A stretch of 64,000 nucleotides of DNA, from the NCBI GenBank assembly GCA_963706045.1, contig CAVPLY010000005.1, positions 8,279 through 72,278 on the forward strand. Reading direction: 5' to 3'. Positions within the stretch are counted from its first letter, which is position 1; the number at the start of each line of letters is the position of its first letter. The notes beneath the pieces are model-generated. The model worked only from the letters and a program-made list of their open reading frames with translations, searched no databases and was not told the DNA's origin. The translations under genes were made by a program, and so were the position numbers. Below are positions 1,427 through 64,000 of the stretch, one piece after another. This DNA comes from an uncultured Actinomycetota bacterium (GTDB taxonomy: Bacteria; Actinomycetota; Actinomycetes; JAHEKZ01).

Positions 1427-1831
1427 CTACTCGGTGCGGTCAGCGTGAAGGGTGCGCGGGTGCCGAGCGTGCTCGCTCAGTGTGTGCAGTCCGGCAACGA
1501 TGCCGCCCGCGAGGTCGCCCGCAGCGAAGGACGACGTCATCGACATCGCTCCGAGGGCCGTCGCCCGGTCGTCGAGGTAGCGAGCTGCGGTTGTGCCGGT
1601 CAGGATCTCAAGACGCCGGTGCGCGGGGTCGACCACCACGATCACCGAACGGTCAGCATCGGCGCCGAGGGCACCGAGGAGTTGCCGCCCCTGCTCACGC
1701 AAGTCCCCGTCTGGGGCTCCCACGAAGACTGAGTAGTCAAGATCGCTCTCGGCGTGGGCGTGGGCAAGAGCACGTTCGATCGCGTCGACCTGACCGGCCG
1801 AGAAGGCGTCACCAGCGGGCACTGCAGCCAC
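1427..1831 (-). CDS. DUF5130-family conserved actinobacterial protein
   Basis: 134-aa ORF, convergent with pepN. Sequence (SVFVGAPDGDLREQGRQLLGALG...) recalled as the DUF5130 family that sits next to pepN in mycobacteria (Rv2468c-like). Confidence 0.65.
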   Translation of the reverse strand: MAAVPAGDAFSAGQVDAIERALAHAHAESDLDYSVFVGAPDGDLREQGRQLLGALGADADRSVIVVVDPAHRRLEILTGTTAARYLDDRATALGAMSMTSSFAAGDLAGGIVAGLHTLSEHARHPRTLHADRTE

Positions 1832-2030
1832 CCCCTTCGCGGACCGGGTCGGCCGAGGCGGCGACCTCGAGGTCGGCGCCTCCGATCCAGATCGGCTCGG
1901 CCCACCACGACAACCCTGGTCGGTACTTCGGCCCGCGCACCCATGAGGGTGTGTAGACCAAGAGCATGATCACGCCATACACCAGGAGGGGCAGCAGGAC
2001 GAACCAGCCCAGGATCTCGATGGTCGACAT
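1809..2030 (-). CDS. Small hydrophobic membrane protein (hypothetical)
   Basis: 73 aa with one clear transmembrane helix (ILGWFVLLPLLVYGVIMLLVY). Overlaps the start of the preceding gene by 23 nt, consistent with translational coupling. Confidence 0.4.
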   Translation of the reverse strand: MSTIEILGWFVLLPLLVYGVIMLLVYTPSWVRGPKYRPGLSWWAEPIWIGGADLEVAASADPVREGGGCSARW

Positions 2031-36122: not shown

Positions 36123-36235
36123 GCCGTCAAGTTTGCCTTGACGGCATGATCTTCGTCAACTTTCCCTTGACGATGCATGTTGGTCACGCCGGGGAGCACA
36201 TCCTCCGAGCGAACGACAGATCGAACGACAGATAC

Positions 36236-38246: not shown

Positions 38247-38481
38247 GTTCGCCCTCCGAGGGTGTGTGGCCCAGCGAACTTATCAACCCCGCACACCCCA
38301 CCAGTCGTTCTGGACGGGACCAGCGACTCCAGCACTCGCCAACCTTCCGCTCCAACATGTCGGTGATCATGTCAGTTGATTCCCCACAGCCCCGCTTCAT
38401 TGCTAGGTTCACCGAACGCACAGACATCGGCGGCAGCCCAAGAAAGTCCGCAGCGGTCAGCACTCAAGGAGGTGGTGAAAG

Positions 38482-39285
38482 GTGAATGTGGACCCCAGCG
38501 GAGCGTCAGCGCCGACAGTCACGAGGCTGTTCACGACCCCAATCAAGGGGTTCACGCTGGGCCAACCTGCAAGCGTCACCCTGGGGAGAAACGGGGCAGA
38601 GGGCGATCGTGACTTCTTCGTCATTGACAGCAACCAGGAGCTCCTGTCGATTACGAGGACAGGTGCCTTTGGGGGTTGGCAGGCTCAGTTTGATCGAGAC
38701 CAAGGTGTCCTGACCCTCGTGTCCTCCGATGGCCGCGTCCTCGAAGACAAGGTCGTCAGGGGTGCTGATGCAGTGGTCGACTTCTGGGGGTCACATGAAG
38801 TCCCAGGTCACATCGTGGATGGCCCTTGGTCGGTCTGGCTGTCTGAGATCGCGGGCCAATCGGTCGACTTGGTGCGCGCGACAGAGCCGGGTGGAGCCAA
38901 CGATGAGACGGCTGTCACGGTGGTCTCGGAGGAGTCCGTCGCTGAGCTGGGGCGAGTGACCAACACCGGGGCGATCGACATCCGCCGATTCCGGATGCTC
39001 ATCAACATCTCCGGTGTTGATTCCTACGAAGAGGAGACCTGGCGCCCCGCCACCGTGCGTATCGGTTCTGCCTTGCTGAAGATGCGGGGCCCGGTGCCTC
39101 GGTGCAACGCCACGACCCGGAATCCTGACACGGGAGAGAAGGACCTGAAGACGCTGCGACTCATCGCCGAGGGCCGCGGGATGCAGCCGGATGAGTTTGG
39201 CGAAGAAGGACTCAATCTGGGCGCTTACGCCGAGGTCGTTGAGCCTGGCGTCGTAAGCGTGGGTGACCGGGTCGAGTTGGTCTAG
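38482..39285 (+). CDS. MOSC domain protein (MOSC_N beta-barrel plus MOSC)
   Basis: RLFTTPIKGFTLGQ is the MOSC_N start. C-terminal MOSC region with the conserved Cys (RGPVPRCNATTRNPDTGEKD). Confidence 0.8.
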   Translation: MNVDPSGASAPTVTRLFTTPIKGFTLGQPASVTLGRNGAEGDRDFFVIDSNQELLSITRTGAFGGWQAQFDRDQGVLTLVSSDGRVLEDKVVRGADAVVDFWGSHEVPGHIVDGPWSVWLSEIAGQSVDLVRATEPGGANDETAVTVVSEESVAELGRVTNTGAIDIRRFRMLINISGVDSYEEETWRPATVRIGSALLKMRGPVPRCNATTRNPDTGEKDLKTLRLIAEGRGMQPDEFGEEGLNLGAYAEVVEPGVVSVGDRVELV

Positions 39286-39374
39286 TCCTCGACATCAATC
39301 CCGGATCAGTACACATTGCGGTGCCCTGGGAATGAGTCGGTGGGGGCGCCTGTTCCCCCACGAGACGACCAAGG

Positions 39375-40124
39375 TTGACCGTGATGGTGAGAAGGGAACT
39401 TGCGGTGCGCGTCTCCGGATTGTGGCGCTACCCGGTCAAGTCACTGGGGGGTGAGACCCTCCAGTCCGCCGAGCTGACTCTCGATGGAGTTGCGGGGGAC
39501 CGGGTGGTACACGTAAGCGGTCCCCGAGGACCACTGACCGGACGGACGCGGTACGGCCTTCTCACGGTCCCGGCGAGCACCGGATCAGATGGTGTTCCGT
39601 ATGTCGCTGGTCATCGCTGGGACTCTGATGAGGCGGCCGAAATCATCAGCCAGAACGGCGGACTGGGCGCGCGGCTCGTCGCAGACGAAGGGCCAGACCG
39701 CTTCGATGTACTCAACCTCCTCGTCGCCACCGACGGAGCGGTTGAACGATTTGGCCATGACGTCCGCAGACTGCGACCGAACCTGCTGCTCGCTGGTGTA
39801 CCAGCCGACATTGAGCCCACGATGCCTGGTCAGGCCATCGCCATTGGGGACGCACTGATCGGCGTCCACTCGGTCCGTGGCCGATGCGTTGTCACGTCGA
39901 TCGACCCAGACTCCGGCGAGCAGGACATGGATGTCTTCCGCCGGATTCACACCGTGTTCGGGGGAGAGTTGGCACTCAACTCTTGGGTCATCCGACCAGG
40001 CACGGTTCGCGTAGGTGATGAGGCAAGCCTGGTGGCCCTCGAGGCCGAGCCAGTTCACCTCGGCGGTTGGGTTGTCGGTGCTCCCTACCCGCACGCGACC
40101 GAGAGCCCGCGCCGGCGGTCGTAG
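39375..40124 (+). CDS. MOSC domain protein (second tandem paralogue)
   Basis: LWRYPVKSLGGE is the MOSC_N start. VRGRCVVTSIDPDSGEQD contains the conserved MOSC cysteine. Confidence 0.75.
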   Translation: MTVMVRRELAVRVSGLWRYPVKSLGGETLQSAELTLDGVAGDRVVHVSGPRGPLTGRTRYGLLTVPASTGSDGVPYVAGHRWDSDEAAEIISQNGGLGARLVADEGPDRFDVLNLLVATDGAVERFGHDVRRLRPNLLLAGVPADIEPTMPGQAIAIGDALIGVHSVRGRCVVTSIDPDSGEQDMDVFRRIHTVFGGELALNSWVIRPGTVRVGDEASLVALEAEPVHLGGWVVGAPYPHATESPRRRS

Positions 40125-40189
40125 GCAGCTGTTACGACTGAACACCACCTCGTGCCGCCCTCGCCCAAAACGCCTAGGCACGCCACACG

Positions 40190-40300
40190 TGGCGGCGGCC
40201 ATCGACGGACAACAGCCACCGCCCCAAGTGGCTGCTTGATTCCCCCGCTTCCACCAAGTCGCGACATCTCGCTCAACCGCGCCCGCTCGCACGACGGATC
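40190..40300. mobile_element. Scar: about 110-bp remnant homologous to the 3' flank of the IS transposase fragments at 49430-49560 and 50960-51090
   Basis: catcgacGgacaacagCcaccGccccaagtGgctgc... aligns with catcgacCgacaacagTcgccAccccaagtAgctgc... at 49430 and with the end of ORF 50447..51007. Confidence 0.5.
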
Positions 40301-40310
40301 AGCCGGCCGG

Positions 40311-40348
40311 GGGCCTGCCTGATCCGCGCGATCAGTTCTTCGTGGAGC
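40311..40348. repeat. 37-bp diverged duplicate of the LuxR gene's 5' coding region (second copy at 46054-46090 inside the LuxR CDS)
   Basis: ggccTgcctgatccgcgcgatcagttcttcgtggagc versus ggccCgcctgatccgcgcgatcagttcttcgtggagc. On the minus strand it encodes LHEELIARIR. Contains the 17-bp near-palindrome ctgatccgcgcgatcag. Confidence 0.6.
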
Positions 40349-40371
40349 AGACGGTCGATCTGCCAGATACC

Positions 40372-41775
40372 TCAGGCAGTAGCCGCGAGACGACCGGCCT
40401 CGGCTCGGTCCGCGGCGGCTTGCGCGCGGTCGCCCAGCTGTTCAGCGAGCGTCGCCTGCTTGAGCCAGTTGTAGGGACTGCACGGCTTGAGGTTGATGCG
40501 TTCACTGAGGAGCTGTCGTGACTGGGCAGATCGGCCGCTGCGCAGGGCGGCCTCGAGCAGGGTGCGCTGGATCGCGTCCCGTTGCGCGTGGCTACCTCCG
40601 AACTCATTGAACCTGTAGCGCAGGGGCATCAGCGCGTCGACGACGGCGTCGTAGTGTCCCGCCCCGAAGTCGAGCATCGCCTTGCACACAGGCAGCCCGA
40701 TTTCGCGAGTCATGGTTGCGTTAGTCACTGCGTCCGGAGCAGTAGCCAGCCAGCTCTCGCGGTCCTGGATCAAGCGTTCTGCGCGGTCGAAACTACCTGC
40801 GCCGACGTAGGACATGACGGCGTGCATGTCGTTGAACGCGTAGCAGGGAGTTTGCATGGCGGGCACCCAAGCATCTGCGAGAGTGCGCCACCGCTCAGTC
40901 TGGTCATCACCCTCTAGATAGAGCCGCCACAGCAGGGCGGCGGCATCGAGCATCTCCATCGCCAGGCCAGCCGACTCGTCGTTGTTGATGACGGAATCGA
41001 AGATTCTGAGTACCCGCTCACGGTCTCCGACCTCGAGCCCAAATAGGCAGCGGTGCCACCAGTTGTGCACGTTGAGGAAGTTCCCGGTGCCCCAGTCGTC
41101 AGTACGGTCATCGAGGTACGAGATCCCCAGGTCGAAGCGTCCCTGCATCTCATAGGTATGCACCACCGCGTGGATACCCCAGACATCGGTCGGGTCCGCT
41201 GCCACGGCGGCAAGGCCGACGTCCTCGGATCGGTCGTAATGACCGGCTTCCTCCAATCCAAAGGAGTACATGCCCAGCAGCTGTGCTCGGTGGGGTTCGT
41301 CGTCGCCCCACGCCGTGAGCGCGCCTCCGACCCGGTCCCGCAGCGAGGTCGCGTCACCGGAGAAGAAGTCAGCTTGGTGACCAACGGCGAGGGCCAGCAC
41401 GTCGCGTGGGTAGGCGACGGTGAGATCGCGAAGGAGTGCCCCGGCTCCTTTCAAGTTTCCGTCCAACCACGCCTGCGCAGCCTCGACGTGCCTGTGCTCT
41501 CGATCGCCCAAGACTGTCTCGTCGGCGCCGGCCCGCCAGCTCACAAAGGCCGTTCGAGCTGCTTGGGTGTCGGCGGCCTCAGTGCCCAGAACGCCGAGGT
41601 AGGCACTGAACACCTGGGCCATCGCCATGTTCGGGTCGACCTCTAGGGCTGCCGCCAATTCGTCGCCCACGGCTGGCCGGAAATGTAGAAGGTGGTCTAT
41701 CGCCGTGTCGTAGTGAGCGACCGCCGCGACATCGGTGGGACCTAAGCCATTGCCGTGTTGATCCGTGTTCGCCAT
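40372..41775 (-). CDS. Tetratricopeptide-repeat (TPR) protein
   Basis: 467 aa of helical repeats from the ATG at 41775 (MANTDQHG...), with an AGGAGC Shine-Dalgarno upstream. The upstream 63 codons of ORF 40372..41964 are discarded. Confidence 0.7.
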
Positions 41776-41910
41776 GGCCGGGATTCTGCTCCTGATGCGG
41801 CAAGATAGCGAGGCTCCCGGGGTCCGCCCTTCCGGTCCCGCGTCAAACGGCCACCACCCAGGGAGATTTCGACGCTGGTAGGACGTGCGGAGGGCCACTA
41901 CAGTGCTGCG

Positions 41911-43340
41911 ATGAGCGCTCAGACGGTAAACACAGTTCCCACTCCAGCGACCTGGCCAGCTCACGACCCGGCCACCTATCGCGTCATCCCCGAGGGCGCC
42001 GCCCCGCTCGACCCGGCACGCGTGGCATCGCTACTCGCGGCCGAATGGGAACGATTCAAGGCACAGACGCCCAACTCCGGTGCTCACCACGCCCGCGCGC
42101 TCGGCTCGCTGCCGCTCGGCGTGCCATCGTCCTTTCAGTACTGGGACCCCTATCCCGTGGCGATCACCAGCGCCAACGGTGCCTGGCTGACCGACGTCGA
42201 CGGCCGCCAGGTACTCGACCTCTCGATGGGCTTCGGCGCCATGCTGGTGGGCCACCTCAACCCCACGGTCGTCGCCGCAGTCGGCAAGGCCCTGGAGACC
42301 GGAACCCTGTTCGTCACCCCGTCACCGTCAGCGACCGAAGCGGCCGAGCGCTTCCAGCGGCGCTTCGGACTCGACAAACTCCGGTTCACCAACTCTGGGA
42401 CCGAAGCCACAATGTACGCAGTCCGCACCGCGCGTGCGTTCACCGAACGCAAGGCGATCATCAAGATCGAGGGCGGCTACCACGGCGGCTACGACGCTCT
42501 GCAGGTCTCGGTGAAACCCGATGTCGCCGACATCGGACCCGAGGAGGCACCTACACCGCAAACACCGTTCGAGGTGGAGGCGGGAACGGTCTACGTCGTT
42601 CCCTACAACAACCTCGCACGCTGGAACAGCTCTTCGCCGAGCACGGTTCCGAGGTTGCCTGCGTCTTCATGGAACCGGTGATGGAAAACATCGGGATCGT
42701 AGTCCCCGACGAGGGTTACCTCGCCAGTGTGCGCGCCATGTGCGATGCCAACGGCGCCCTCCTGGTGTTCGACGAGGTCAAGACCGGCCTCACGGCCGGG
42801 CCTGCCGGAGCCGCGCAACGGCTCGGAGTCACGCCGGATCTGATCTGTCTGGCCAAGAGCATCGGGGGTGGCCTGCCCCTCGCAGCCTTCGGTGGACGCG
42901 AAGAGGTCATGGCCTGCGTGTCCGACGATCGCATGCCGCATTTCGGCACCTACAACGGCAACCCGCTCGTCGTGGCAGCCGCTGTGGCGATCGATGAGAT
43001 CGCCACAGCCGAGGCGCTCTCATCGGCCGAGAAGCTCAATGTCGACGCCCTCGAGGCGATGAACTCGATCATCAACGAGCATGCCCTACCGGCCCACACA
43101 GTGGGCCTGGGCGTCAAGGGTGCGGTCACCTGGTCAACGACCCCAGTGCGCAACTATCGCGACTACAAGCGCACCGACTTCGGTGCCGCCGAGCTCAGTT
43201 GGCTCTGGGGCGTCAACCGCGGCATTCTGACCCCGCCCGGGCTCGACGAGCAGTGGCTGGTGTCGCTGGCTCACACCGCCGACGACATGAACATTCTCGT
43301 CAGCGACTTCCGCGAACTCGCCGAGGCCCTTCGCGGCTGA
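41911..43340 (+). pseudogene. Class III (PLP-dependent) aminotransferase, glutamate-1-semialdehyde aminomutase-like; single frameshift near 42612
   Basis: N-terminal part (FTNSGTEATMYAVRTARAFTERKAIIKIEGGYHG) in ORF 41911..42681. C-terminal part with the PLP lysine region (LLVFDEVKTGLTAGP...CLAKSIGGGLPLAAFGG) in ORF 42045..43340. The junction is ...VYVVPYNNL / EQLFAEHGSEV. Confidence 0.85.
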
Positions 43341-43382
43341 GACTGGACTGAATCGTCGATCTCGAGCGAAAGACGTCAATCC

Positions 43383-44978
43383 ATGACCGACGCCCACCGG
43401 TATGACGCAATCGTTGTCGGAGGCGGCCACAACGGCCTTGTCAACGGCGCCTACCTCGCCAAAGCGGAGATGAACACGCTCATCCTCGAGCAACGTCACC
43501 TCGTGGGGGGCGCCGCTATCACCGAGGAGCTCTACCCCGGCTTCAGCTTCACGACGTTCTCCTACGGGCTGAGTCTGGTCCGACCCGAGGTGATTCGTGA
43601 GCTCGAACTGGTCAAGCACGGATTCAACCCCATCTACATGCCGACGGTATTCGCCCCGATGGAGAACGGCGACTATCTGCTGCTCGGCCCCGACCGGGAC
43701 GAGAACATCCACGAGATCGGGCGGCACTCTCGGCGCGATGCCGACGCCTTCGACCGTTACGAGCACGACCTAGCACGCGTCCTTCAGATGTTGTACCCGC
43801 TGTCCGACCGAGTGCCACCCGACATCTTCGGCAGCACCCCCGAGGACGCCGAGGACGTCGCCTGGCTGCTCGGGCACCTCGGGTCGGCAGACAAGAAGGT
43901 CATCCACGATGCCGTCCGGATCATCACGGGCAGCGTCTCGGACTTCCTGGACGACTACTTCGAGAGCGAGATCGTCAAGGGTTACCTTGCTGCATCCTCC
44001 ACGACGGGCACCAAGGTCGGACCGATGTCAGCGGGCTCGGGTCTGGTCTGGTTGATGCAGATGCTGGGCGAGCACGACGGTCACCTCGGCTCGTGGTCGT
44101 TCCACAAGGGAGGCAACGGCGGGTTCACTCAAGTGCTGGGGCGCGCGGCGCAGTCGTTTGGTGCCGAGATCCTCCTTGACTCGCGCGTTGACCACGTACT
44201 GACCAAGGATGGCAAGGCGGTCGGCGTCGTCCTCACCGACGGAACCGAGTTCCACGCCGACACCGTCGTCAGCGCCCTCGACCCGCGCCAGACGTTCACC
44301 AAGCTTGTCGACCCCCGCGAACTGCCGTCGGACCTGGTCGAGAGCATCGACCGCTACCAGTTCAACGGCACCAGCGCCAAGGTCAACTTCGCGCTCGACG
44401 ATGTACCTCGGTACCCAGCGCTCGGAGACCGCACCGACCAGTACCGCGGCTTCGTCAGCATTGCCCCGTCGATCGAGTACCTCGAGCGCGCCTATGACAC
44501 CTCAAAGTACGGCTGGTACAGCGAGCGTCCGTACCTCGACACCTGCTTTCAGACTTTCCTCGATCCCGATATGGCGCCTCCCGGCAAGCACGTCATGTCG
44601 TGCTTCGTCTCCTACGCGCCGTACCACCTCAAGGGCAGCGACTGGGACACCGAGCGCAACAACCTTGGCGACACGGTGCAAAGCACCATCGAGTCGTTCT
44701 TCCCCGGCTTCGGTGACCTGGTGCTGCACCGAGAGGTCGTCACGCCGCTCGACATCGAGCGGGTCGTCGGGCTCTCCGAAGGCAACATCTACGCCGGCGA
44801 CTACCTACTCCCGCAGCTGTACTTCTTCCGCCCGGCGCCCGGGTGGAGTCAGTACCGCACGCCGATCGAGGGCTACTACCAGTGCGGCTCAGGCACTCAC
44901 CCGGGTGGCTGCGTCACGGGGGCGCCCGGACGCCTGGCAAGCCAGCAGATCCTCAAAGACCGCTCCCTAACGATCTGA
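43383..44978 (+). CDS. FAD/NAD(P)-dependent oxidoreductase, phytoene-desaturase/amine-oxidase superfamily
   Basis: YDAIVVGGGHNGLVNGAYLAKAE is the dinucleotide-binding motif. 531 aa. Start 40 nt after the aminotransferase stop, so a likely operon. Confidence 0.85.
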   Translation: MTDAHRYDAIVVGGGHNGLVNGAYLAKAEMNTLILEQRHLVGGAAITEELYPGFSFTTFSYGLSLVRPEVIRELELVKHGFNPIYMPTVFAPMENGDYLLLGPDRDENIHEIGRHSRRDADAFDRYEHDLARVLQMLYPLSDRVPPDIFGSTPEDAEDVAWLLGHLGSADKKVIHDAVRIITGSVSDFLDDYFESEIVKGYLAASSTTGTKVGPMSAGSGLVWLMQMLGEHDGHLGSWSFHKGGNGGFTQVLGRAAQSFGAEILLDSRVDHVLTKDGKAVGVVLTDGTEFHADTVVSALDPRQTFTKLVDPRELPSDLVESIDRYQFNGTSAKVNFALDDVPRYPALGDRTDQYRGFVSIAPSIEYLERAYDTSKYGWYSERPYLDTCFQTFLDPDMAPPGKHVMSCFVSYAPYHLKGSDWDTERNNLGDTVQSTIESFFPGFGDLVLHREVVTPLDIERVVGLSEGNIYAGDYLLPQLYFFRPAPGWSQYRTPIEGYYQCGSGTHPGGCVTGAPGRLASQQILKDRSLTI

Positions 44979-45003
44979 GTAATCACCGCCTCTGAAGAAC
45001 TAC

Positions 45004-46308: not shown

Positions 46309-46680
46309 ATGAACACCTCCAGCCCCACGAAGCTCGCAACCCAGACGGTCTGCTTCGCCGCCCCCCTGCTCACCGGCACCACATCGGTGGATCGCGAGGA
46401 GATGCTCTCCTGCTGGACCGGCGTGCGACACGACGAGCACGCCGCCTCCCGCCGGCAGCACGGCATTACCCGCGAGGCGGTATGGATCCAGCCCACGCCG
46501 GGCGGAGACTTCGCATTGGTCCTCCTCGAGTCGGCCGACCTGCCGAGGGCATTGCTCGGCATCGCGACATCGCAAGAGCCGTTCGACGTGTGGTTCCGCG
46601 AGCACCTGAAAACCGTCCACGGCATGGACTTGTCGCAGGGAATGACGCTGCCGGAGACGGTCCTCGACTACCGAGCCTGA
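46309..46680 (+). CDS. Hypothetical protein (about 123 aa)
   Basis: ATG with a GAGGAG Shine-Dalgarno 7 nt upstream. Divergent from the LuxR gene. No recognisable motif. Confidence 0.5.
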   Translation: MNTSSPTKLATQTVCFAAPLLTGTTSVDREEMLSCWTGVRHDEHAASRRQHGITREAVWIQPTPGGDFALVLLESADLPRALLGIATSQEPFDVWFREHLKTVHGMDLSQGMTLPETVLDYRA

Positions 46681-46832
46681 CACTGCATCTGCCTGCCGGC
46701 GTCAGTCGGTCGAAATTCATCGGGCTCCTTGGGGACGAGAGCGGCACAGCGCCCTCAACTACTCAAGGAGCCCGGCGCGAAAGACCTGCTGGGACCTAGG
46801 GCAGCTGAATCCTCACGCAGACACTCGTTCTG

Positions 46833-47031
46833 GGGCGGATGCGAGCAAGAATCCGCCCGTTGGACTTGATCCGCCCCGATCGCGGCCGGGCCCAGCCGGT
46901 TTCCCACAGGAATTCCGAATGTCCCGCCCCGTAGGGCGTGCGTGAAACTCCTGACACCCCCGCTGACCTGAGTGTTCACCGGTACGCGAATGCACCGCGC
47001 AAGCGAACCTGCGCAGATCCGGAAGTGGCGG
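46833..47031 (+). repeat. Copy 1 of a ~190-bp structured intergenic repeat with hairpin core CGCAcGTCC-N10-GGgCGTGCG
   Basis: Modules cttgatccgccccgatc / ggtttcccacaggaattccgaatgtcccgccccgtagggcgtgcgtgaaactcc / ctgacctgagtgttcacc / atccggaagtggcgg. Preceded by an 8-bp-stem hairpin gggcggat-N10-atccgccc. Confidence 0.75.
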
Positions 47032-47271
47032 CTCTCCTACGTGCTGGGTCTGCGACCGCCCTCCATCGACGGCGAGGGCTCTCCTCCCCCGCTCACCTCT
47101 TCAGAGGTCTCATCATCGCGGGCACAGGGACTCTTCCGAGTCCCTGTCGGCGGCCTTTACGACTACTCCTCGAAACCCAGACACCGAACCCAAAGGCACC
47201 CTTCGTGGCGCCGCTTCATCAGGCAGCTGCAAGCGCCGGGCCAACGGGACCGGTTGCGCCGATCGGTGATG

Positions 47272-49263
47272 TCAGGGCAAGGGGCCGACGGGCACCGAAA
47301 CGGCTGCCGCATCCGCTGCGGTGGGTCCGTCGAGACCTGGCACTTGCGGTTCGGGGGGTCGGTGCCAGTTCAAGTACGTCAGGATTACGCCGGTTATGAC
47401 GGTGTATGCCAGCAAGACACCCAGCGATTGCCCTATGCCGTTGCCATTGAAATAGACCGTGTTGCGCAACAGCTCATAGGCGTTGCGGGGAGGTAGAAAC
47501 GGCCCAAGATCTCGCCAGAAATTGGTCAGATACACCGCACCGTTCGACCCACCAGACGACGGATTGCCGAACTGCAGAAAGATGATCACCGTCAGCAGAA
47601 TTCCGGCTGGTCCCAAGAGTCGCCGTAGAACAGCGGCAAACAAGGACACCGTGAGGATGATCAGCGACATGATCGGCCACACGACCCAGAAGGAATCGCT
47701 TGGTATTCCCTGAAGCCAGAAAGTGGCGATGAGGTCAACCACGAGACCGGCAACGACTGCGAACCCGAGGAGCCATTCCCCTCTCCAATGGCCGGAGGCG
47801 GATTTGAATGCATTCGTCAACAACGCCGTGGCCATGTAGCCACCCACGAGCAGGGGAACCAGCAGCGTGGCTAGTACCAACGCAAACGGATCCTTAGGTG
47901 CGAGCGGCGTCGGCACGTAGGACTTGACGGTGATCTGCTCCGACGAAGCCTGGGCTGCCTTCTCGAAGTTCCCGGCAATATCTAGCGGCGCGATGTCGCT
48001 GATCGACGGGACCACGATGAGTTCTCCCGGGGACTCGGTGGCGATGAGAGCTCCATAGATTTCCCCACGATCGATGGCCCCCATCGCGGCCTGCCGGTCC
48101 GGGTACTCCGTAACGTCCAGGGAGAACAGATCGTTCTGCGCCGCATCGACCAGCGGGGAAGACCCAACGCTGCCGAAGGGCATGTCGTCCGCGATTGGTT
48201 CGTGGCCCGAACTCATGTAGTTGAACGCAAAGAGCGCGCTCAGGATCAGCGCCAGGGTCACCGGCGCTACGAGATTCCTCGGAACAAAGCGGCGCCGTCC
48301 CGATCCCGAGCTGGACTCGTCGTCAGCTGGTGCGCCAACGGCGGGTTCGATGGTGACGCGCCTACCCATGAGGACGACAAGCACCACGCCGACAACGGCG
48401 TAGAGGCTCAGCACGAGGATTGGAACAGCGATGCCGTTGCCATCGAAGTAACGGACATTGCGGTAGAGCTCGACGGCGTGCCGTGGCGGGAAGAGGGCGC
48501 CGATGTACTGCCAATACGTGGGGAGCAGTGACACCCCACCGCCGCCGGCGCCCGCACCACCGACCACAACGAAGGCCAACGCCACCACGAGCGTGCCCGC
48601 TTTGCCGAGAACCGCCTGGAGGCCAATCGCCGCGAGGGCAACCGCCGCAGTAACGAGCGCAAAGCAGGGTAGTAGGCCCCACACTGCGCTCGATGGAACC
48701 CCACCTACCGCTCGCGCAGCCACGGCGGTGATCACCGCGACGGCGACCGCAAAGCCAAGAACCACCGAGATGCGACGCCACGCTGACGCAGTCCGGGCGT
48801 AGGGGAAGATCATGGAAGCGATCAGGTATCCGCCAATGAGGGTGGGGAGCAGGAGAAGTCCCACCAGCCCACCCGTTCGGTCCGACGTGGGAAGCGGGGC
48901 TACGACTGTTGTATCGAAGGTTCGGCCCGACTTCTTCGCCGCGTCGGCGAAACCACCGCGCACGAACACTTCGCCGAAGAAGCTTTTGGCTGGGACGGTG
49001 ATGAGGGTGTCGTTGGGTGTTCCCGGGATGTAGCCGCCGTAGATTTCGCCGTCCTCAGCGGCCTGCTTCAGGTCTTCCTCTGATTCGTAAGTGATGAGGT
49101 CCAGGGAGTACTCGGTCTGAACGGCGGTGACGACTGGCGAAGGCCCCGTGACCCCGAATGGCATGTTTCGTGGCGTGAGAAGTTGCAGGGCGCTCACCAG
49201 GCAGATCGCGAAGACGGCGACCAACACCACGACGGTCACTAGCGCCACGATTGGCTTTCTCAC
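47272..49263 (-). CDS. YhgE/Pip-like (ABC-2/DUF3533-type) membrane protein with internal tandem duplication
   Basis: 663 aa. Two about 320-aa halves each with an N-terminal transmembrane helix, a large extracytoplasmic domain and a C-terminal five-helix bundle ending LLPTYWQYIGALFPPRHAVELYRNVRYFDGNGI / AVYLTNFWRDLGPFLPPRNAYELLRNTVYFNGNGI. GTG start with a GGAGGAAG Shine-Dalgarno. Confidence 0.75.
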   Translation of the reverse strand: MRKPIVALVTVVVLVAVFAICLVSALQLLTPRNMPFGVTGPSPVVTAVQTEYSLDLITYESEEDLKQAAEDGEIYGGYIPGTPNDTLITVPAKSFFGEVFVRGGFADAAKKSGRTFDTTVVAPLPTSDRTGGLVGLLLLPTLIGGYLIASMIFPYARTASAWRRISVVLGFAVAVAVITAVAARAVGGVPSSAVWGLLPCFALVTAAVALAAIGLQAVLGKAGTLVVALAFVVVGGAGAGGGGVSLLPTYWQYIGALFPPRHAVELYRNVRYFDGNGIAVPILVLSLYAVVGVVLVVLMGRRVTIEPAVGAPADDESSSGSGRRRFVPRNLVAPVTLALILSALFAFNYMSSGHEPIADDMPFGSVGSSPLVDAAQNDLFSLDVTEYPDRQAAMGAIDRGEIYGALIATESPGELIVVPSISDIAPLDIAGNFEKAAQASSEQITVKSYVPTPLAPKDPFALVLATLLVPLLVGGYMATALLTNAFKSASGHWRGEWLLGFAVVAGLVVDLIATFWLQGIPSDSFWVVWPIMSLIILTVSLFAAVLRRLLGPAGILLTVIIFLQFGNPSSGGSNGAVYLTNFWRDLGPFLPPRNAYELLRNTVYFNGNGIGQSLGVLLAYTVITGVILTYLNWHRPPEPQVPGLDGPTAADAAAVSVPVGPLP

Positions 49264-49369
49264 CGGCTACTTCCTCCACGATCGTTGGCGCTCGGAGTGC
49301 GTCAGACTAGCGTCTTGGACGGCCCTCCGACTGGTGCCTGCTGCTGTTCGGCGTCTGGGTCGGAGTCAT

Positions 49370-49560
49370 TGCCAGCACAACCAGACCGTCATCGTGCTGA
49401 TGGCAGCACTCGCCCAGAACGCTTGGGCACGCCATACCTGGCAGCGGGCCATCGACCGACAACAGTCGCCACCCCAAGTAGCTGCCTAACTCCCCGCCTC
49501 ACAACCTCACTCCACCTGGTTCAGCCGCGCCCACGACCGGGCTCGAGCGCCCGAAATCGC
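49370..49560 (+). mobile_element. Remnant of the 3' end of a DDE-transposase gene plus its downstream flank (IS scar)
   Basis: Encodes ...HNQTVIVLMAALAQNAWARHTWQRAIDRQQSPPQ, about 90% identical at the nucleotide level to 50895-51005. Immediately followed by repeat copy 2. Confidence 0.6.
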
Positions 49561-49574
49561 TCACTGACACTCCA

Positions 49575-49715
49575 CTGAGGGCCAAACCCACAAGGAATGC
49601 CGCACGTCCCGCCCCCGTAGGACATGCGTGAAACTCCGTCAGCCTCACCTGACCTGTGTGTTCATTGGAGCCCGAGGGTGTGGCGGAAGTGGATCGGGTC
49701 AGTTCCGGAAGTGAC
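49575..49715 (+). repeat. Copy 2 of the ~190-bp hairpin repeat; lacks the left about 70 bp
   Basis: ggggccaaacccacaaggaatgccgcacgtcccgcccccgtaggacatgcgtgaaactcc...cacctgacctgtgtgttcattg...ttccggaagtgac. Confidence 0.75.
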
Positions 49716-49973
49716 TCAATCGAAAGAGCCCACGCTGAAGTTTTCTAGGCCCGGCATCTGGCGGCCGATGACATCGTCGCCGCGGCTAAGTTCGAAGACG
49801 CCTGTCCTGAGGTCGAGTGTGAGCTCGTCGTAGAGACCGTATCCTCTAGACAGCTCTGCTGAATCTCTCCGACCTGGCCCACCGGATATCACCAGACCCG
49901 AGGTAGGCACGATGTTGTGGTAGATGGCGTCCCAGTCACCCGCGCTCCTCCCCCGTGAGGAACCAGTCGTCAA
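49716..49973 (-). CDS. Hypothetical small protein (85 aa); could be a gene fragment
   Basis: ORF only. Located between repeat copy 2 and the transposase remnant. No motif recognised. Confidence 0.25.
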   Translation of the reverse strand: MTTGSSRGRSAGDWDAIYHNIVPTSGLVISGGPGRRDSAELSRGYGLYDELTLDLRTGVFELSRGDDVIGRQMPGLENFSVGSFD

Positions 49974-50076
49974 AGCGCACGCTCTGTAAGGTGCGCAGAG
50001 ATCGTTGGCACCAAACTTAAGCCTGACGCGGCCAGATGCTTCGCTGCGCCCGAGCTCAGTGGCCTAGGTTGGGCTC

Positions 50077-50343
50077 GTGAGCAAGAGCGACGCCCAGCGG
50101 GCATTGAGAGAAGCCAACTTCGCCCGTCGTAAGGCGGCCCAGACAGAGCGGGTTCCCAAGCGAACGGCAGAGGCGAAACATTCCCCCGCCGGCGAACCTG
50201 AAAGAGCACAGGCCACTAGGCCCTCAGCGGTCAAGACGCCATCGACAAGCGCGACCGAACCCCTTTGCGGTCACCGCAACATGGGGGGCAAGAAATGTAG
50301 TCGCCCCGCTGGCCACGCGGAGAAGAACCATCGCTACAAATAG
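50077..50343 (+). CDS. Hypothetical small basic protein with a C-terminal Cys/His cluster (CGHRNMGGKKCSRPAGHAEKNH)
   Basis: 88-aa ORF upstream of the transposase fragment. Possibly a zinc-ribbon remnant of the same disrupted IS. Confidence 0.3.
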   Translation: MSKSDAQRALREANFARRKAAQTERVPKRTAEAKHSPAGEPERAQATRPSAVKTPSTSATEPLCGHRNMGGKKCSRPAGHAEKNHRYK

Positions 50344-50446
50344 CGACGTCCCAACAACATCCCGAGCCGACAGTCGGGGGTCGGGGCGGGAAACCGTTTG
50401 GCACATCTTCCCCGCTCGCCGCAAGAGCAAAGAACGAGGCGGCATC

Positions 50447-51007
50447 GTGATCAGCAAGTACGGCCACGCCGCCACCCAGCTCCCGCCAAGCCGAACACGC
50501 GCAGCGTGGATAGAAGAATGCGGAGGGCACGTCCTCTACGCGGCCGGCGGGACGATCTACGAGCGCGTCGTGACCGCCGACGGAAGCCTCGACTTCGTCG
50601 AAGTCACCCGCCACCAGACCAAACGAGACCGCAAGGCTGATGGGAACTGGGCGTTCTACGCCCGGCACACCCTGACCTGCCGATCTACCGGCGACCTGCA
50701 CGACTGGTGGGAGCCGCTCACCCCGACCCAGACGGACGAGGCACACAAGTTCAATCGCAGCGACTACCTGCGCGTCCTGCCCCCGACCGACCCCGACTAC
50801 AGCCGCGTCTACGGCATGCGGGCTGACACCGAGTCGCTGAACGCGCAGTTTGAGCGCGCCTTCTACAACCGAAGGCTCCCGGCCTGGGGCCTCCACAACC
50901 AGACGGTCATCGTGCTCATGGCAGCACTCGCCCAGAACGCCTGGGCCCGTCACACCTGGCAACGGGCGATCGACCGACAACAGTCACCGCCACAAGCAGC
51001 TGCCTGA
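50447..51007 (+). mobile_element. DDE transposase C-terminal fragment (IS pseudogene; IS4/ISAs1- or IS256-like C-terminal motif, family uncertain)
   Basis: YSRVYGMRADTESLNAQFERAFYNRRLPAWGLHNQTVIVLMAALAQNAW resembles transposase C-terminal Y-R-E / ESLN...LxxL signatures. There is no N-terminal HTH or DDE domain, so it is truncated. Confidence 0.55.
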
Positions 51008-51093
51008 CCCCCCCACTTCACACCGAAGCCAAACCGGGCTCAACCACGTCCCCACACCGATCCACAGTCACAAAATCGTTCCCTGACAGCCCC

Positions 51094-51310
51094 ATCGGGG
51101 CCAAACCAGCGCCAAAGCCCGCCCCCTAGACTTAATCCGCCCCGATCCCAACCGATCGCGGCAGGGTCCAGCAGGTTTCCCACAAGGAATCCCGCACGTC
51201 CCGCCCGCGTAGGACGTGCGGAAAACTCCCCGCGCCGCACCTGACCTGCGAGTTCACCATGGCGCGAGCGCCTACTGGAAGCGAATATGGCCAGATCCGG
51301 AAGTGGCCGC
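51094..51310 (+). repeat. Copy 3 of the ~190-bp hairpin repeat (full length)
   Basis: ctagacttaatccgccccgatc...cgcggcagggtccagcaggtttcccacaaggaatcccgcacgtcccgcccgcgtaggacgtgcggaaaactcc...cacctgacctgcgagttcacc...atccggaagtggccg. Confidence 0.8.
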
Positions 51311-51608
51311 GGCCTACGGGATCGGGTTCGTTGTCCAATCTCTGCCACTTGTCGGCGTCCTCCGCGATCGGTCTCAGGTCGACGACGGCGAAGTACAGGC
51401 CGTACGCCTTGGCTAGCTCCTCGCCGCGCCGCCGCCGGCGTCTGCGGCACCGTAGCTCGCCATTGCGGTCGGCAGCGATGAACGTTCTGAACGGAGACCG
51501 GACCAAAGGCTCTAGCCCCCCGACGGTCATGCGCGATACCGCTTGGGCGGAGTGACGTCATGGTGCGACAGGCACGTGGTTCGAGGGTCGACCGTTGGGA
51601 GGTGCGGG

Positions 51609-52082
51609 ATGCAGGACGAGACGCTCATCGATCTCGTCGAGCGCTATCACGAGTACTACACGGCGCGTGACATCGACGCGATCATGGCGCTGTTCACCGA
51701 CGACGCCGTGGTGAACTGGGCTGGGGGCACTTTCCGGGGTAAGGCAAAGATCCGCAAGGTTGTGGAGTGGGACTTCGACCAGTCCCCCTCGGCCAGAGTG
51801 GACATCACCGGCATCGGCATCGTCACCGGGGATCGTCTGGCCATCGCCGAACGGGTTGTCCACCTCACCGCCGACGAGATCCCGTATGAGGAACCGGCCC
51901 TCACCGTGTTCGAGGTCGACGATCAAGGAGCGATCGTCGAGATGCGCTCGTACTACGACAAGCTGGGGTTGATGCACCAGATCGCTTCGAAGTACCCGGG
52001 CATCAAGGGGCGGCTGTTCCGCGCAATGACCGGCTTCCTCGTGAAGATGGGACGTCAGGGATTGGACGCCTCGCCCGACTGA
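51609..52082 (+). CDS. SnoaL-like / NTF2-like (ketosteroid-isomerase fold) protein
   Basis: LIDLVERYHEYYTARDIDAIMALFTDDAVVNWAGG is an NTF2-like pattern. ATG with a GGGAGG Shine-Dalgarno. Flanked by repeat copies 3 and 4. Confidence 0.7.
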   Translation: MQDETLIDLVERYHEYYTARDIDAIMALFTDDAVVNWAGGTFRGKAKIRKVVEWDFDQSPSARVDITGIGIVTGDRLAIAERVVHLTADEIPYEEPALTVFEVDDQGAIVEMRSYYDKLGLMHQIASKYPGIKGRLFRAMTGFLVKMGRQGLDASPD

Positions 52083-52250
52083 CGGGCGCACACTCACGCA
52101 CAGTGGCCAAGGGAAGTGTCCGGTCGAACTGACCGAGAGGGTGTCCTCGGCTCGCCCGCCACCTTGCCTTCAGCAGATGGGAATCCAGGCCTGACCTGGT
52201 CGCTGCGCGTGTCCCCCTCGACACCGCAGCAACGACCGAACAGCCACTGA

Positions 52251-52445
52251 GTCCCGCCCTCTAGACTTGATCCGCCCCGATCCGAACGGTTCGCGGCAGG
52301 GTCCAGCAGGTTTCCCACAAGGAATTCCGCACGTCCCGCCCCCGTAGGACGTGCGTAAAACGCCCGGCACTGCACCTGACCTGCGTGTTCATCAGAGTGT
52401 GAGTGCACGGTGGAAGTAGAAATGGTCGAATCTGGAAGTAGCGTC
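52251..52445 (+). repeat. Copy 4 of the ~190-bp hairpin repeat (full length)
   Basis: ctagacttgatccgccccgatc...cgcggcagggtccagcaggtttcccacaaggaattccgcacgtcccgcccccgtaggacgtgcgtaaaacgcc...cacctgacctgcgtgttcatc...atctggaagtagcg. Confidence 0.8.
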
Positions 52446-52479
52446 ACCTGGCGCAAGATTGGGTTCGTTTCGACAAAAG

Positions 52480-53460
52480 TCACTCGTCAGCTACCGGCCT
52501 CCTCGCCTGGAGACTGCTGAGCCTTTCCTCGGCCTTCTCCAGTTGCTTGGCGATCCGGCCCCGGAGCTGGGTGGTGCGGTCGAGTTCGGTCAGTGCGCTC
52601 GTGGCTGTCACTGAGCCTTCGAGGACCTGACGGTTGTCCAGCTGCTCGATGAGCTTTGCTCGACGCTCGTGGATCCAGACCCTGACCTCGCGCGGCTCCT
52701 TGAACAGGTGCTTGTAGTACGCGCGGAAGACGCGGTACCACTCTTCCTCGGTGACCGGGGTGATCTCATCGGTCCACTGATCCTCGACGTCCTTGTTACC
52801 CGACTTCATCCGCATGAGCGGGGCCAGCACGTCGTAGCGGAAGTCATGCGGGTCATCTGAGGCTCCAAGCTCTTCGGAGGGCTCCACACCTTCGAGCCGC
52901 GCATCTTCGGCGAAGGTCCACTCCCACAGTCGGTCCAGCCACTCCAGGTTCAGGGTCAGACCTTCCTCTCGGCCGTAGGAGTTGGTGGCTCTCTTGGCCC
53001 CCGTGTGGGCAGAGGCCTCGAGCAGGGCCTCTTCGTAGCAGTCGAGACGGCGGAGCTGCAGCAGGAGCATCAGGATCTGGTCGACTGCTCGCTGCTCGAC
53101 GGCACCTTGCGGGGCGTAGGCCTCAAGCAGTGAGACTAGGAACCCATCAACCTCGGTTGGGTCCTCGGCCATCGACCCCCGGGTGATAACTCGACGCTTG
53201 GCCGCGAAGACGCCATGCGTGGTGGCCTTCTGCGAGGAGCGCTGCTTGCCTTCCTCGGTCCGCGGCCCGGTGCTCTTCTGGGCGTTGGCGGCGTTGGCGC
53301 GCTTCTGCGCCTCGGTGGGCTTGGTCGACCTGGCTTGACTCTTCGCCCTGGTGGGCTTCTGCTTGGTAGGTGGCGCTGAAGTGGTCTTCCGCGGCATCGC
53401 CTTGCGGGCGGCCGCCTTCGGTGCCTTGCCTGCGCCGGCTGGGGTGCTGTCCTCTGCCAT
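52480..53460 (-). CDS. Hypothetical protein with a Lys/Ala/Pro-rich histone-H1-like N-terminal tail and a conserved acidic C-terminal domain
   Basis: ATG with a GAAGGAG Shine-Dalgarno. The N-terminal 95 aa are about 25% K/R and A/P-rich (AGKAPKAAARKAMPRKTTSAPPTKQKPTRAKSQ...). The MAEDPTEV motif is repeated. Confidence 0.6.
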   Translation of the reverse strand: MAEDSTPAGAGKAPKAAARKAMPRKTTSAPPTKQKPTRAKSQARSTKPTEAQKRANAANAQKSTGPRTEEGKQRSSQKATTHGVFAAKRRVITRGSMAEDPTEVDGFLVSLLEAYAPQGAVEQRAVDQILMLLLQLRRLDCYEEALLEASAHTGAKRATNSYGREEGLTLNLEWLDRLWEWTFAEDARLEGVEPSEELGASDDPHDFRYDVLAPLMRMKSGNKDVEDQWTDEITPVTEEEWYRVFRAYYKHLFKEPREVRVWIHERRAKLIEQLDNRQVLEGSVTATSALTELDRTTQLRGRIAKQLEKAEERLSSLQARRPVADE

Positions 53461-53921
53461 GACTGCTCCTTCAATAGATGGCTCTTACACCCCTTCTGTG
53501 GTCTCGACATGGGTCAGACAGGACGGGACCGGCAACCGTTTTGATGGCACTTCCAGGTCGGGTACCCATGGGCCTCGCGGCGTCTGGAACGTGACGACGC
53601 GTCTCACGAGATCGACATCGCGCCGTCTCGTGAAGCGTCACATGAACGCAGGGTGGGAAGTCAGTCCCGAGGTCGGCGAGGCGGCTGATCCCGCGGCCCC
53701 GGCCAGGCCGCTGTTAACCGGTGCGCCGCACATTCCGGCGGCTGGTAGGGATCCATCGGTCCGAGGTCCGAATGAGGGTGCGGAGGCACCTTCGTGAGCG
53801 GGCCGGGCCCCGGGATCAGAAGCTTGACGGTCCGATTAACGGGTTGAAGCCTTCCTGGAAAGCCCTACCAGGCCGTGAGGTGACGACATCTGACCTTCGG
53901 GGCACGACTAGCACCGCACTT

Positions 53922-63992: not shown

Positions 63993-64000
63993 TGAGGCCT

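Follow-up and report, generated by a model that had tools for sequence, protein, structure and literature searches.

Our analysis indicates that four related repeats of about 190 bp, which lie within 5.7 kb of each other on a contig of an uncultured Actinomycetota bacterium (CAVPLY010000005.1; the 64-kb stretch that we analysed is hereafter called the window), are very probably head-to-tail junctions of tandem, mostly decayed and non-autonomous, site-specific DNA transposons of Actinomycetota. Each copy consists of the right end (RE, ~90 bp) of one element, a target duplication of 9-10 bp and the left end (LE, ~100 bp) of the next element; the target duplication, GCCCNCGTA(G), corresponds to nucleotides 1-9/10 of tRNA-Arg. 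The first-pass annotation of the window had described the copies as one element with one orientation, built on a 9-bp hairpin, and had made no link to tRNA-Arg: its hairpin stem (CGCACGTCC/GGACGTGCG) is a pair of terminal inverted repeats, and its hairpin loop is the first 10 nt of tRNA-Arg. The inverted repeat shared by LE and RE extends to 12 bp (GGACGTGCGGAA / TTCCGCACGTCC), and the 9-bp stem falls within it. The closest of the four origins then suggested was the subterminal part of a degenerate insertion sequence (IS), although what abuts in each copy is two different ends around a duplicated target and not a portion of a single element.

The repeats themselves are genuine. Reading of positions 46500-52800, a repeat finder and a four-way alignment confirmed four plus-strand copies that share ordered blocks, and the cassette-like blocks of genes between them are equally real; an nhmmer profile of the four copies matched at 46843-47032, 49548-49717, 51109-51309 and 52245-52445, and detected no fifth copy in the window. 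The 29-nt core CCGCACGTCCCGCCCCCGTAGGACGTGCG occurs three times at one mismatch or fewer, and never in 100 shuffles. The perfect 9-bp hairpin that had been ascribed to every copy holds for copies 3 and 4, but not for copy 2, which has one mismatch (GGACATGCG), or for copy 1, the most degraded of the four, which has three changes in the arms and a loop shorter by 1 nt. As described, copy 2 lacks ~70 bp of the left module, and an additional hairpin (GGGCGGAT-N10-ATCCGCCC) precedes copy 1 at 46834-46859; this hairpin is absent from the other copies and overlaps a place where the ATCCGCCC motif is repeated locally; the motif is also present inside the RE (GATCCGCCCCGATC). A blastn search of one copy against plasmids gave no match. 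Elsewhere the two halves of the repeat are found apart: the RE fused to tRNA-Arg, at ~50 loci in other Actinomycetota genomes, and the LE beside unrelated flanks.

The 186-amino-acid (aa) open reading frame (ORF) at 50447-51007 has many unnamed homologues and no Pfam domain. At two homologue loci, L001 and L002 (L-numbers denote loci fetched from other genomes, plasmids and metagenome contigs), the gene is followed by the left half of the repeat, which leads directly into a tRNA-Arg(CCT) gene (...CCGCACGTCCC followed by GCCCTCGTAGCTCAG...), and it is this continuity that identifies the hairpin loop as the start of tRNA-Arg. Scanning a single genome from each species for the RE core plus the target CGCACGTCCCGCCCNCGTAG returned 76 loci, nearly all in Actinomycetota metagenome-assembled genomes (MAGs): at ~55 the sequence that follows (CTCAG...) belongs to an ARAGORN-confirmed tRNA-Arg with anticodon CCT or TCT; at 13 it is an LE, GACGTGCG[GT][AG]AAAC, as in the window copies; and ~8 are chance matches in coding DNA. 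Tandem arrays anchored at a tRNA exist, because three loci (L007, L033 and L070) have a junction-type copy 1.2-3.3 kb upstream of a tRNA-fused copy. In L007, L033 and L085 a tRNA-His lies ~2.8 kb beyond the tRNA-Arg. At ~25 loci the gene of a putative transposase, which we call TnpX, ends 100-200 nt upstream of the tRNA. An unbiased check came from loci chosen by protein identity alone, where tRNA-Arg lies ~190-200 nt 3' of the stop codon in six of seven distinct elements (L001, L002, L079, L080, L084 and L085). As the two tRNA-Arg isoacceptors have only their first ~26 nt in common, we infer that the target determinant lies within these nucleotides or in the adjacent leader. Acceptor pair 5:68 varies among the RE-adjacent tRNA-Arg(CCT) genes of L001-L085 (C:G in 11, T:A in 16, T:G wobble in 9 and C:A in none) and is C:G in 16/16 tRNA-Arg(TCT) genes; the wobble cases could stem from ordinary drift or from the first 9-10 nt having been exchanged.

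Flanking target-site duplications, a check that the first-pass annotation had proposed, are present around complete elements. L080 (4.1 kb; positions 2429/6564) and L067 (3.4 kb; positions 7841/4455) carry GCCCTCGTA on both sides and have the same layout: unrelated flank; GCCCTCGTA; the LE, starting GGACGTGCGG...; the RE, finishing ...CGCACG(T/C)CCC; GCCCTCGTA; and GCTCAG... with the remainder of the tRNA. L072 is an LE/RE-bounded unit of 2.25 kb, of which the sole gene is a frameshifted TnpX gene and the flanks are GCCCTCGTAG and GCCCCCGTAG. All three combine short terminal inverted repeats with a target duplication in the 9-12 bp range that marks elements of the IS4/Tn5 type.

A comparison of occupied and empty sites is provided by L043 and L018, two adjoining stretches of a single MAG contig. 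This contig is syntenic with the window and matches it at 93-97% over 37178-44996 and at 83% over 50929-51359. L018 agrees with the window at 98.8% identity over 51360-52347, a segment made up of the SnoaL cassette with its RE and GCCCCCGTAG; past 52347, L018 continues into CTCAGTGGATAGAGC... and a tRNA-Arg(TCT), whereas the window continues into GACGTGCGTAAAAC and an LE. Because L018 has the tRNA where the window has an LE, the genome of the window holds one further element at the tRNA start. L043 also lacks window positions 38292-41894 entirely.

A metagenome scan for the target plus LE gave at least 121 pattern matches in at least 120 loci. Among the matches listed, ~37 are genuine LE and 84 of 121 are chance matches in coding DNA; 17 are clean RE-target-LE junctions, ~7 are LE ends beside unrelated flanks, and 3-4 are junctions with extra partial target copies between RE and LE. 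The last group lies on metagenome contigs (L104, L106, L108 and L184/L191), as exemplified by cgcacgtccc-GCCCTCGT-GCCCTCGTAG-gacgtgcg at L106. Extra partial target copies are expected from staggered-cut insertion followed by excision and end-joining, and not from conservative recombination; they may be footprints of excision or re-insertion.

Full-length TnpX proteins are ~500-525 aa in length. Pfam returned nothing for TnpX at E<=1, NCBIfam returned only IS1182 at E 0.16, and single-sequence and profile searches of PDB returned nothing relevant; the C-terminal fragment in the window matched IS1182 (E 0.018) and IS1380 (E 0.036) of NCBIfam faintly and below threshold. No sequence membership in IS4/Tn5 was seen against DDE_Tnp_1 or against the IS4, IS701, IS1380 and IS1182 models of NCBIfam. 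A TnpX profile retrieved 1,240 clusters at 50% identity (E<=1e-3), none of them named; ten distant members have no Pfam domain, save one sub-threshold match to DDE_Tnp_1 (E 0.003), and RefSeq labels the homologues on Mycobacterium and Streptomyces plasmids as “hypothetical protein”. The possibility raised earlier that the copies are simply the ends of a known, annotated IS family is thus half right: they are transposon ends, but of a family that Pfam, NCBIfam and RefSeq do not recognise.

The predicted structure of TnpX places it close to Tn5 transposase. For a confident AlphaFold model built from a 25-sequence alignment (predicted local distance difference test, pLDDT, 86.9; predicted template-modelling score, pTM, 0.86), the five best Foldseek matches in PDB are Tn5 transposase (E 2.5e-6 to 9e-6, probability 1.00, ~470 aligned columns), followed by the Tn5 inhibitor, and the model has an RNase-H-like core of the Asp-Asp-Glu (DDE) type related to that of Tn5 transposase. 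In this model D199 (VVGIDGKVF) is located on strand 195-203, D301 (ADGAWRG) just past strand 297-300, and E466 (YGMRxDTESLNAQLE) in helix 462-478, where it forms part of Y459-x2-R462-x3-E466; each of the three acidic residues is at least 90% conserved, and a beta-rich insertion domain (strands 319-427) separates D301 from helix 462-478. The position of the K in the YREK signature, Y-(2)-R-(3)-E-(6)-K, is E473 or variable in TnpX. An hhalign comparison of the family profile with an approximate Tn5 sequence produced no alignment, so that the DDE residues of TnpX are not mapped by sequence onto D97, D188 and E326 of Tn5. By fold, ends and duplication length the TnpX family fits the IS4/Tn5 type, whereas by sequence it stands outside every curated IS family tested; judging from the model, TnpX would be the enzyme that catalyses insertion. 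Copies 2 and 3 in the window each lie behind the 3' end of one same ORF, as the repeat finder showed: the DDE-transposase remnants reported at these places are real by tblastn, with their transposase nature coming from the structure only.

Intact copies usually contain a second gene. A 310-330-aa gene lies directly upstream of TnpX in six of seven intact copies (L060, L068, L079, L081, L085 and pMK12478) and is split in L080; in several copies the opposite strand also carries a small helix-turn-helix (HTH) gene. In searches the partner protein matches Phage_int_SAM_1, the N-terminal SAM-like domain of phage integrases, and matches their catalytic domain weakly. Compared with XerD, the Arg, His-x-x-Arg, His and Tyr residues are missing in 7/7 aligned members, the replacements being S/A/H at Arg-I, R/G/A/S at His-II, L/R/G/N/S at His-III and F/L/R/K/Y at Tyr, and the R-K-H-R-H/W-Y set of a catalytic integrase is not found. 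Because the catalytic residues are gone, the partner is not a conventional recombinase; our guess is that it recognises the element ends or the target. The LE/RE-bounded copy at L072 has no partner gene.

Several relatives of this gene pair were observed. Plasmid loci L086 (M. kansasii pMK12478, 36081-38458) and L087 (S. mirabilis plasmid pI) have a recombinase-like gene followed by a TnpX-like gene at ~30% identity, with no tRNA nearby and with a recombinase-like protein that likewise lacks the catalytic residues; in pMK12478 an adjacent HTH gene on the other strand precedes the pair. In L081-L083 (P0092), intact partner and TnpX genes occur on seven contigs with no tRNA after them, and a minus-strand gene of 475 aa starts 38 nt past TnpX; this subfamily may use a different target. 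P0169, of 898 aa, is ~400 aa longer at the N-terminus, matches the TnpX profile over 465-893, has no Pfam domain, and is possibly a fusion with the upstream partner. Finally, L002 (~1040-1110, minus strand) and L068 (~1800-1840, minus strand) contain the 3' portion of a tRNA-like sequence, which comprises T-arm and acceptor, resembles Thr(CGU) in L002 and overlaps the 3' end of a small excisionase-like HTH gene to the left of the gene module and is absent from the other loci checked; it looks like a relic of a classical integrative element of the tRNA-3'-end type.

The recombinase-like partner raises the alternative that each junction is an attP-like site (P-O-P') of an integrative cassette. 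Such cassettes would move by conservative site-specific recombination, with 9-10 bp at the tRNA-Arg 5' end as the core, much as integrative elements accrete in tandem or as integron cassettes do, and with the partner or another enzyme as recombinase and TnpX as an accessory or domesticated protein. Tandem arrays, and conserved arms about a short core, look alike under this model and under transposition, and recombinase-like and HTH/excisionase-like genes are present in most intact modules. The partner, however, lacks catalytic Arg, His, Arg, His and Tyr throughout, including in the plasmid homologues (30% identity); the L072 copy has no partner gene between its LE and RE; and TnpX has a predicted DDE transposase fold with conserved acidic residues. 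Two sequence features would suit recombination, namely the non-identity of the copies that flank L072 (T vs. C at position 5) and the T:G wobble at 5:68 in 9/36 RE-adjacent tRNA-Arg(CCT) genes, which could reflect an element-borne core. The geometry points the other way: tyrosine recombinase overlap regions are 6-8 bp, a length exceeded by the 10-nt spacer between the 9-12 bp inverted repeats, and partial tandem target copies are not products of conservative recombination. Taken together, we consider recombination at attP-like sites improbable.

The two ends differ in their organisation. We compared 45 dereplicated RE sequences that share <60% identity farther upstream. In 33 of them a TANNNT hexamer, most often TAGACT, TAGAAT or TAAAAT, falls between −82 and −72, with a peak at −76; another nine have it between −52 and −46, and it hardly occurs at other positions. 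Besides the hexamer, conservation is confined to GGTTTYCCNCA at ~−40 and the terminal CGCACGTCCC. The hexamer is probably an outward promoter that transcribes the tRNA, the tRNA's own promoter having been displaced. In ~45 diverse LE copies the conserved blocks are GGACGTGCG[GT][GA]AAAC (1-15), TGACCTG (~30), GGAAGTRG (~64) and CCGGAAGT (~87), which occupy fixed positions, with no indels and with variable sequence between them, and look like protein-binding sites; the LE of an autonomous element starts with GGACGTGCGGAAAAC and has two GGAAGT boxes, at ~64 and ~87.

At ~20 loci an RE-like leader, GGTTTYCC...CGCACGTCCC, precedes tRNA-Arg without TnpX upstream. These leaders, together with the resemblance of the TANNNT box to a genuine promoter, would also suit the reading that the left halves are simply the host tRNA-Arg promoter or leader plus the 5' end of the gene, multiplied by segmental duplication. 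We regard that reading as very unlikely, as the left half is physically coupled to the 3' end of TnpX, at a distance that does not vary, in ~25 loci and in subfamilies only 45-57% identical; as the left flanks of complete elements (L080, L067, L092, L121 and L153) are unrelated to the left half; and as the left half forms a 12-bp inverted repeat with the LE. In the transposon reading, loci without TnpX are explicable as RE remnants that have been kept because the RE would now carry the promoter of the tRNA.

Least probable of all, in our view, is that the repeat is a structured small RNA or cis-regulatory RNA with the 9-bp hairpin as its core, the option of a small-RNA gene family included. 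A perfect GC-rich stem in two copies, the retention of G-U pairs on the plus strand by two of the three arm changes in copy 1, and transcription over the junction that the RE probably drives would accord with such an RNA; but the window has no Rfam family at gathering thresholds, and folding energies are indistinguishable from those of dinucleotide shuffles (z-scores +0.51, +0.87, −0.42 and −0.28; minus strand −1.04). Moreover, the arms belong to separable units that lie apart in most loci, and arm variants are uncompensated, as in L080, where an RE with CGCACGCCCC accompanies an LE with GGACGTGCG; both locus scans fixed one arm of the hairpin, which bears on how covariation is to be read. Group II intron 3' ends, IS110 bridge RNA, TnpB omega RNA and repetitive extragenic palindromes (REP/RAYT) were also considered and rejected, as there was no Rfam match and the linked protein is a Tn5-like DDE protein by its predicted fold.

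We propose the following mechanism. An element would comprise, in order, the LE, optional cargo, an HTH gene (in some), the dead tyrosine-recombinase-like gene (in most), TnpX and the RE. The transposase would insert it at the first base pairs of a tRNA-Arg(CCU or UCU) gene and duplicate 9-10 bp (GCCCYCGTA(G), tRNA nt 1-9/10), which would restore an intact tRNA at the right end; the tRNA's own promoter would be shifted far to the left and the putative outward promoter of the RE would take over. The target would be recreated beside the tRNA each time, so that newcomers would insert there and older copies would move left, and serial insertion would yield an array of RE-target-LE junctions. Older copies would drop their transposase genes and keep their ends and passengers (in the window YhgE-like, SnoaL-like and others). 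Elements 1-3 of the window, which have LE, RE and target copies and TnpX remnants only, or none, have the make-up of non-autonomous derivatives, MITE-like or cargo-carrying.

A number of points weigh against this account. The case is wholly comparative. Upstream of junction 3 the window departs from L043 in ways for which tRNA-proximal insertion does not suffice; deletions, inter-junction recombination or insertion at internal junctions have to be invoked. The duplication length (9 or 10 bp) and the tips of the element are ambiguous, the base beside each end fitting both; the window has neither an intact transposase gene nor a tRNA, and the array is therefore not visibly anchored. No LE was found upstream of L002, L060, L068, L079 and L085 in the 2-7 kb available, and scanning the DNA 5' of ten gene modules, intact or remnant, with the LE motif gave no match; the left ends of those ten modules lie outside the fetched DNA or are different, and the left boundary of most elements is unplaced. 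The pattern of the genome scan placed CGCACGTCCC in every genome match, so that the share of tRNA-Arg genes without the leader is not derivable from it. An E. coli-type sigma-70 promoter scan found no site in the RE, a result that is uninformative for high-GC promoters of the −10-only kind; the silence of the scan is accounted for by such actinobacterial promoters having only a −10 box. Lastly, TnpX does not resemble Tn5 or any IS model significantly in sequence, its DDE assignment coming from the predicted structure.

The coordinates of the features in the window are given in Table 1. The RE of junction 1 has a mutated −10-like box (TGGACT, 46861-46866) and a degraded terminal repeat (CGAATGTCC), and the LE that follows starts with GGGCGTGCGTGAAAC and contains the TGACCTG and CCGGAAGT motifs. 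The RE of junction 3 has TAGACT at 51127-51132, 76 nt before the target copy, as well as GGTTTCCCACAAGGAAT and the terminal CCGCACGTCCC. Element 2 has lost the TnpX N-terminus and the upstream partner gene by deletion, and a truncated element of the same type is present in L007, L026 and L047 (85-89% identity). The window stops at position 64000, short of the right end of element 4 and of the tRNA; there is no tRNA gene anywhere in the window, and tblastn found no TnpX downstream of junction 4 in it.

Table 1. Positions of transposon ends, target copies, passenger genes and remnants in the window
Feature	Position	Strand	Evidence
Older decayed TnpX C-terminus remnant, aa 487-514	40154-40236	+	tblastn, sequence
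Junction 1, RE of the element to the left	46851-46925	+	nhmmer left-arm profile, alignment
Junction 1, target copy GCCCCGTA (tRNA-Arg nt 1-9 with 1-nt deletion)	46926-46933	+	
Junction 1, LE of element 1	46934-47032	+	nhmmer right-arm profile, LE comparison
Element 1: LE, YhgE/ABC-2-like gene (−), 37-aa TnpX tail, truncated RE	46934-49610		
Element 1 passenger, ABC-2/YhgE-like membrane protein, 663 aa	47272-49263	−	Pfam ABC2_membrane_3, 1e-15
TnpX C-terminus remnant, aa 478-514, right side of element 1	49376-49486	+	tblastn, 97% to L085 TnpX
Junction 2, truncated RE, ~70 bp including TAGACT box gone	49589-49610	+	alignment, repeat finder
Junction 2, target copy GCCCCCGTA	49611-49619	+	sequence
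Junction 2, LE of element 2 (GGACATGCGTGAAAC...)	49620-49718	+	nhmmer profile, LE comparison
Element 2: LE, small ORFs, TnpX C-terminal 191 aa, RE	49620-51202		
Element 2, TnpX C-terminal 191 aa (aa 315-505 of the 514-aa protein)	50405-50977	+	tblastn
Junction 3, RE of element 2	51117-51202	+	nhmmer profile, RE comparison
Junction 3, target copy GCCCGCGTA	51203-51211	+	sequence
Junction 3, LE of element 3	51212-51309	+	nhmmer profile, LE comparison
Element 3: LE, SnoaL-like gene, RE	51212-52337		
Element 3 passenger, SnoaL-like protein	51543-52082	+	Pfam SnoaL_2, 3e-16
Junction 4, RE of element 3 (TAGACT 52262-52267)	52252-52337	+	nhmmer profile; L018 match
Junction 4, target copy GCCCCCGTA (in L018, start of intact tRNA-Arg(TCT))	52338-52346	+	
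Junction 4, LE of element 4	52347-52446	+	nhmmer profile
Element 4: LE, 326-aa gene, then membrane and stress genes to window end	52347 onward		
326-aa gene, no family match, adjoining the LE of element 4	52480-53460	−	Pfam search

Three further observations concern the surroundings of the junctions. The LE of element 4 and the 326-aa gene (window 52348-53584) are kept together in metagenome contigs L119 and L198 at 93% identity, beyond which the window, L119 and L198 diverge; the gene has a lysine/alanine-rich N-terminus and may belong to the element 4 subtype. The older TnpX remnant upstream of the array precedes a spacer similar to the one behind the gene of copy 3 and is truncated by a minus-strand gene (40372-41964), which suggests that mobile-element-derived material starts upstream of the reported region. 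Two small minus-strand ORFs that end beside the LE of elements 2 and 3 (49716-49973 and 51316-51530) have a short ...(R/K)(G/A)YGLY... stretch in common, which may be due to chance or to descent of both ORFs from one element gene.

Our comparison with known systems places these elements between several groups. With IS50/Tn5 and the IS4 family they share putative catalytic D, D and E on the expected structural elements of the model, a beta-rich insertion, Y-x2-R-x3-E, short terminal inverted repeats and a target duplication of 9-10 bp; the duplication made by Tn5 and Tn10 is 9 bp. They differ in that TnpX has no detectable sequence similarity to Tn5, Pfam or NCBIfam entries and does not conserve the K of YREK; in strict site and orientation specificity at the 5' end of tRNA-Arg; in long ends (~90-100 bp) with internal repeated boxes and a probable outward promoter; and in the usual presence of the dead recombinase partner, sometimes with an HTH gene and often with cargo. 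Closest in behaviour are the Tn7-like elements (attTn7 by glmS; type V-K and I-B CRISPR-associated transposons by tRNA genes), which likewise insert in one orientation at one conserved site of an essential gene and spare the gene, carry cargo between the transposition genes and the far end, have long ends with repeated motifs, and possibly resemble the TnpX elements in having a separate DNA-binding target selector. Tn7-like elements, however, insert downstream of the gene with a 5-bp duplication, whereas TnpX elements enter the 5' end of the gene with 9-10 bp; the TnpX element would use a single Tn5-like enzyme rather than a heteromeric machine, no CRISPR component was seen, and no Pfam match to TnsA, TnsB (rve), TnsC or TniQ was found among the called genes of the fetched modules.

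Islands, prophages and actinomycete integrative elements that insert at tRNA genes by a tyrosine integrase resemble the TnpX elements in the tRNA anchor, in tandem accretion at one tRNA, in restoration of the gene by element-borne sequence, and in an integrase-like plus HTH/Xis-like pair. They use the anticodon loop, the T-loop or the 3' end and supply the 3' part of the tRNA, whereas the TnpX element uses the first 9-10 nt and would supply promoter and leader, and its integrase-like protein lacks all the catalytic residues; only tRNA nt 1-9/10 are repeated, and the junction lies at the 5' end, not at any of the classical crossover sites. Integron cassette arrays have in common with the window blocks of one to three genes and same-oriented, imperfectly palindromic repeats that vary between relatives; here, however, the repeat is not attC but splits into two ends and a target copy, the genes are of mixed orientation and the array is anchored at a tRNA gene, and a tblastn search of the window with the partner protein, no search having been aimed at IntI, found no recombinase-like gene. 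Insertion immediately 5' of tRNA genes, or at their very start, as a safe haven is also seen with Ty3 and with Dictyostelium TRE5/DGLT-A, which are retrotransposons that insert by tRNA genes and recognise Pol III factors; the TnpX element, being a bacterial DNA transposon, must instead recognise DNA sequence or structure. We found no description of elements like these in the literature searched, ISfinder lying outside the comparison.

More tentatively, these elements could represent a hitherto undescribed class of homing transposon that joins a Tn5-like DDE enzyme to a dead recombinase-like recognition subunit, in which promoter replacement would lock in the RE, serial insertion and decay would generate integron-like accessory arrays upstream of tRNA-Arg, and the plasmid gene pairs would be relatives with other targets; we put this wider proposal at somewhat below an even chance.

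In conclusion, a puzzling repeat appears to be the signature of a large, unannotated transposase family, and the RE-target-LE motif together with the TnpX profile could serve to mark out the boundaries of such islands in genomes and MAGs. For work on targeted DNA insertion, a Tn5-like transposase that acts as a single enzyme and has a fixed chromosomal landing site, possibly with a separable DNA-binding subunit for specificity, would be of interest, and the dead recombinase partner would be a new case of exaptation of the recombinase fold. For the biology of these bacteria, the elements would be DNA transposons that home to the opening bases of a tRNA gene, which is a class of site unused by known tRNA-targeting islands, and would make the region upstream of tRNA-Arg a hot spot at which Actinomycetota gather accessory genes.

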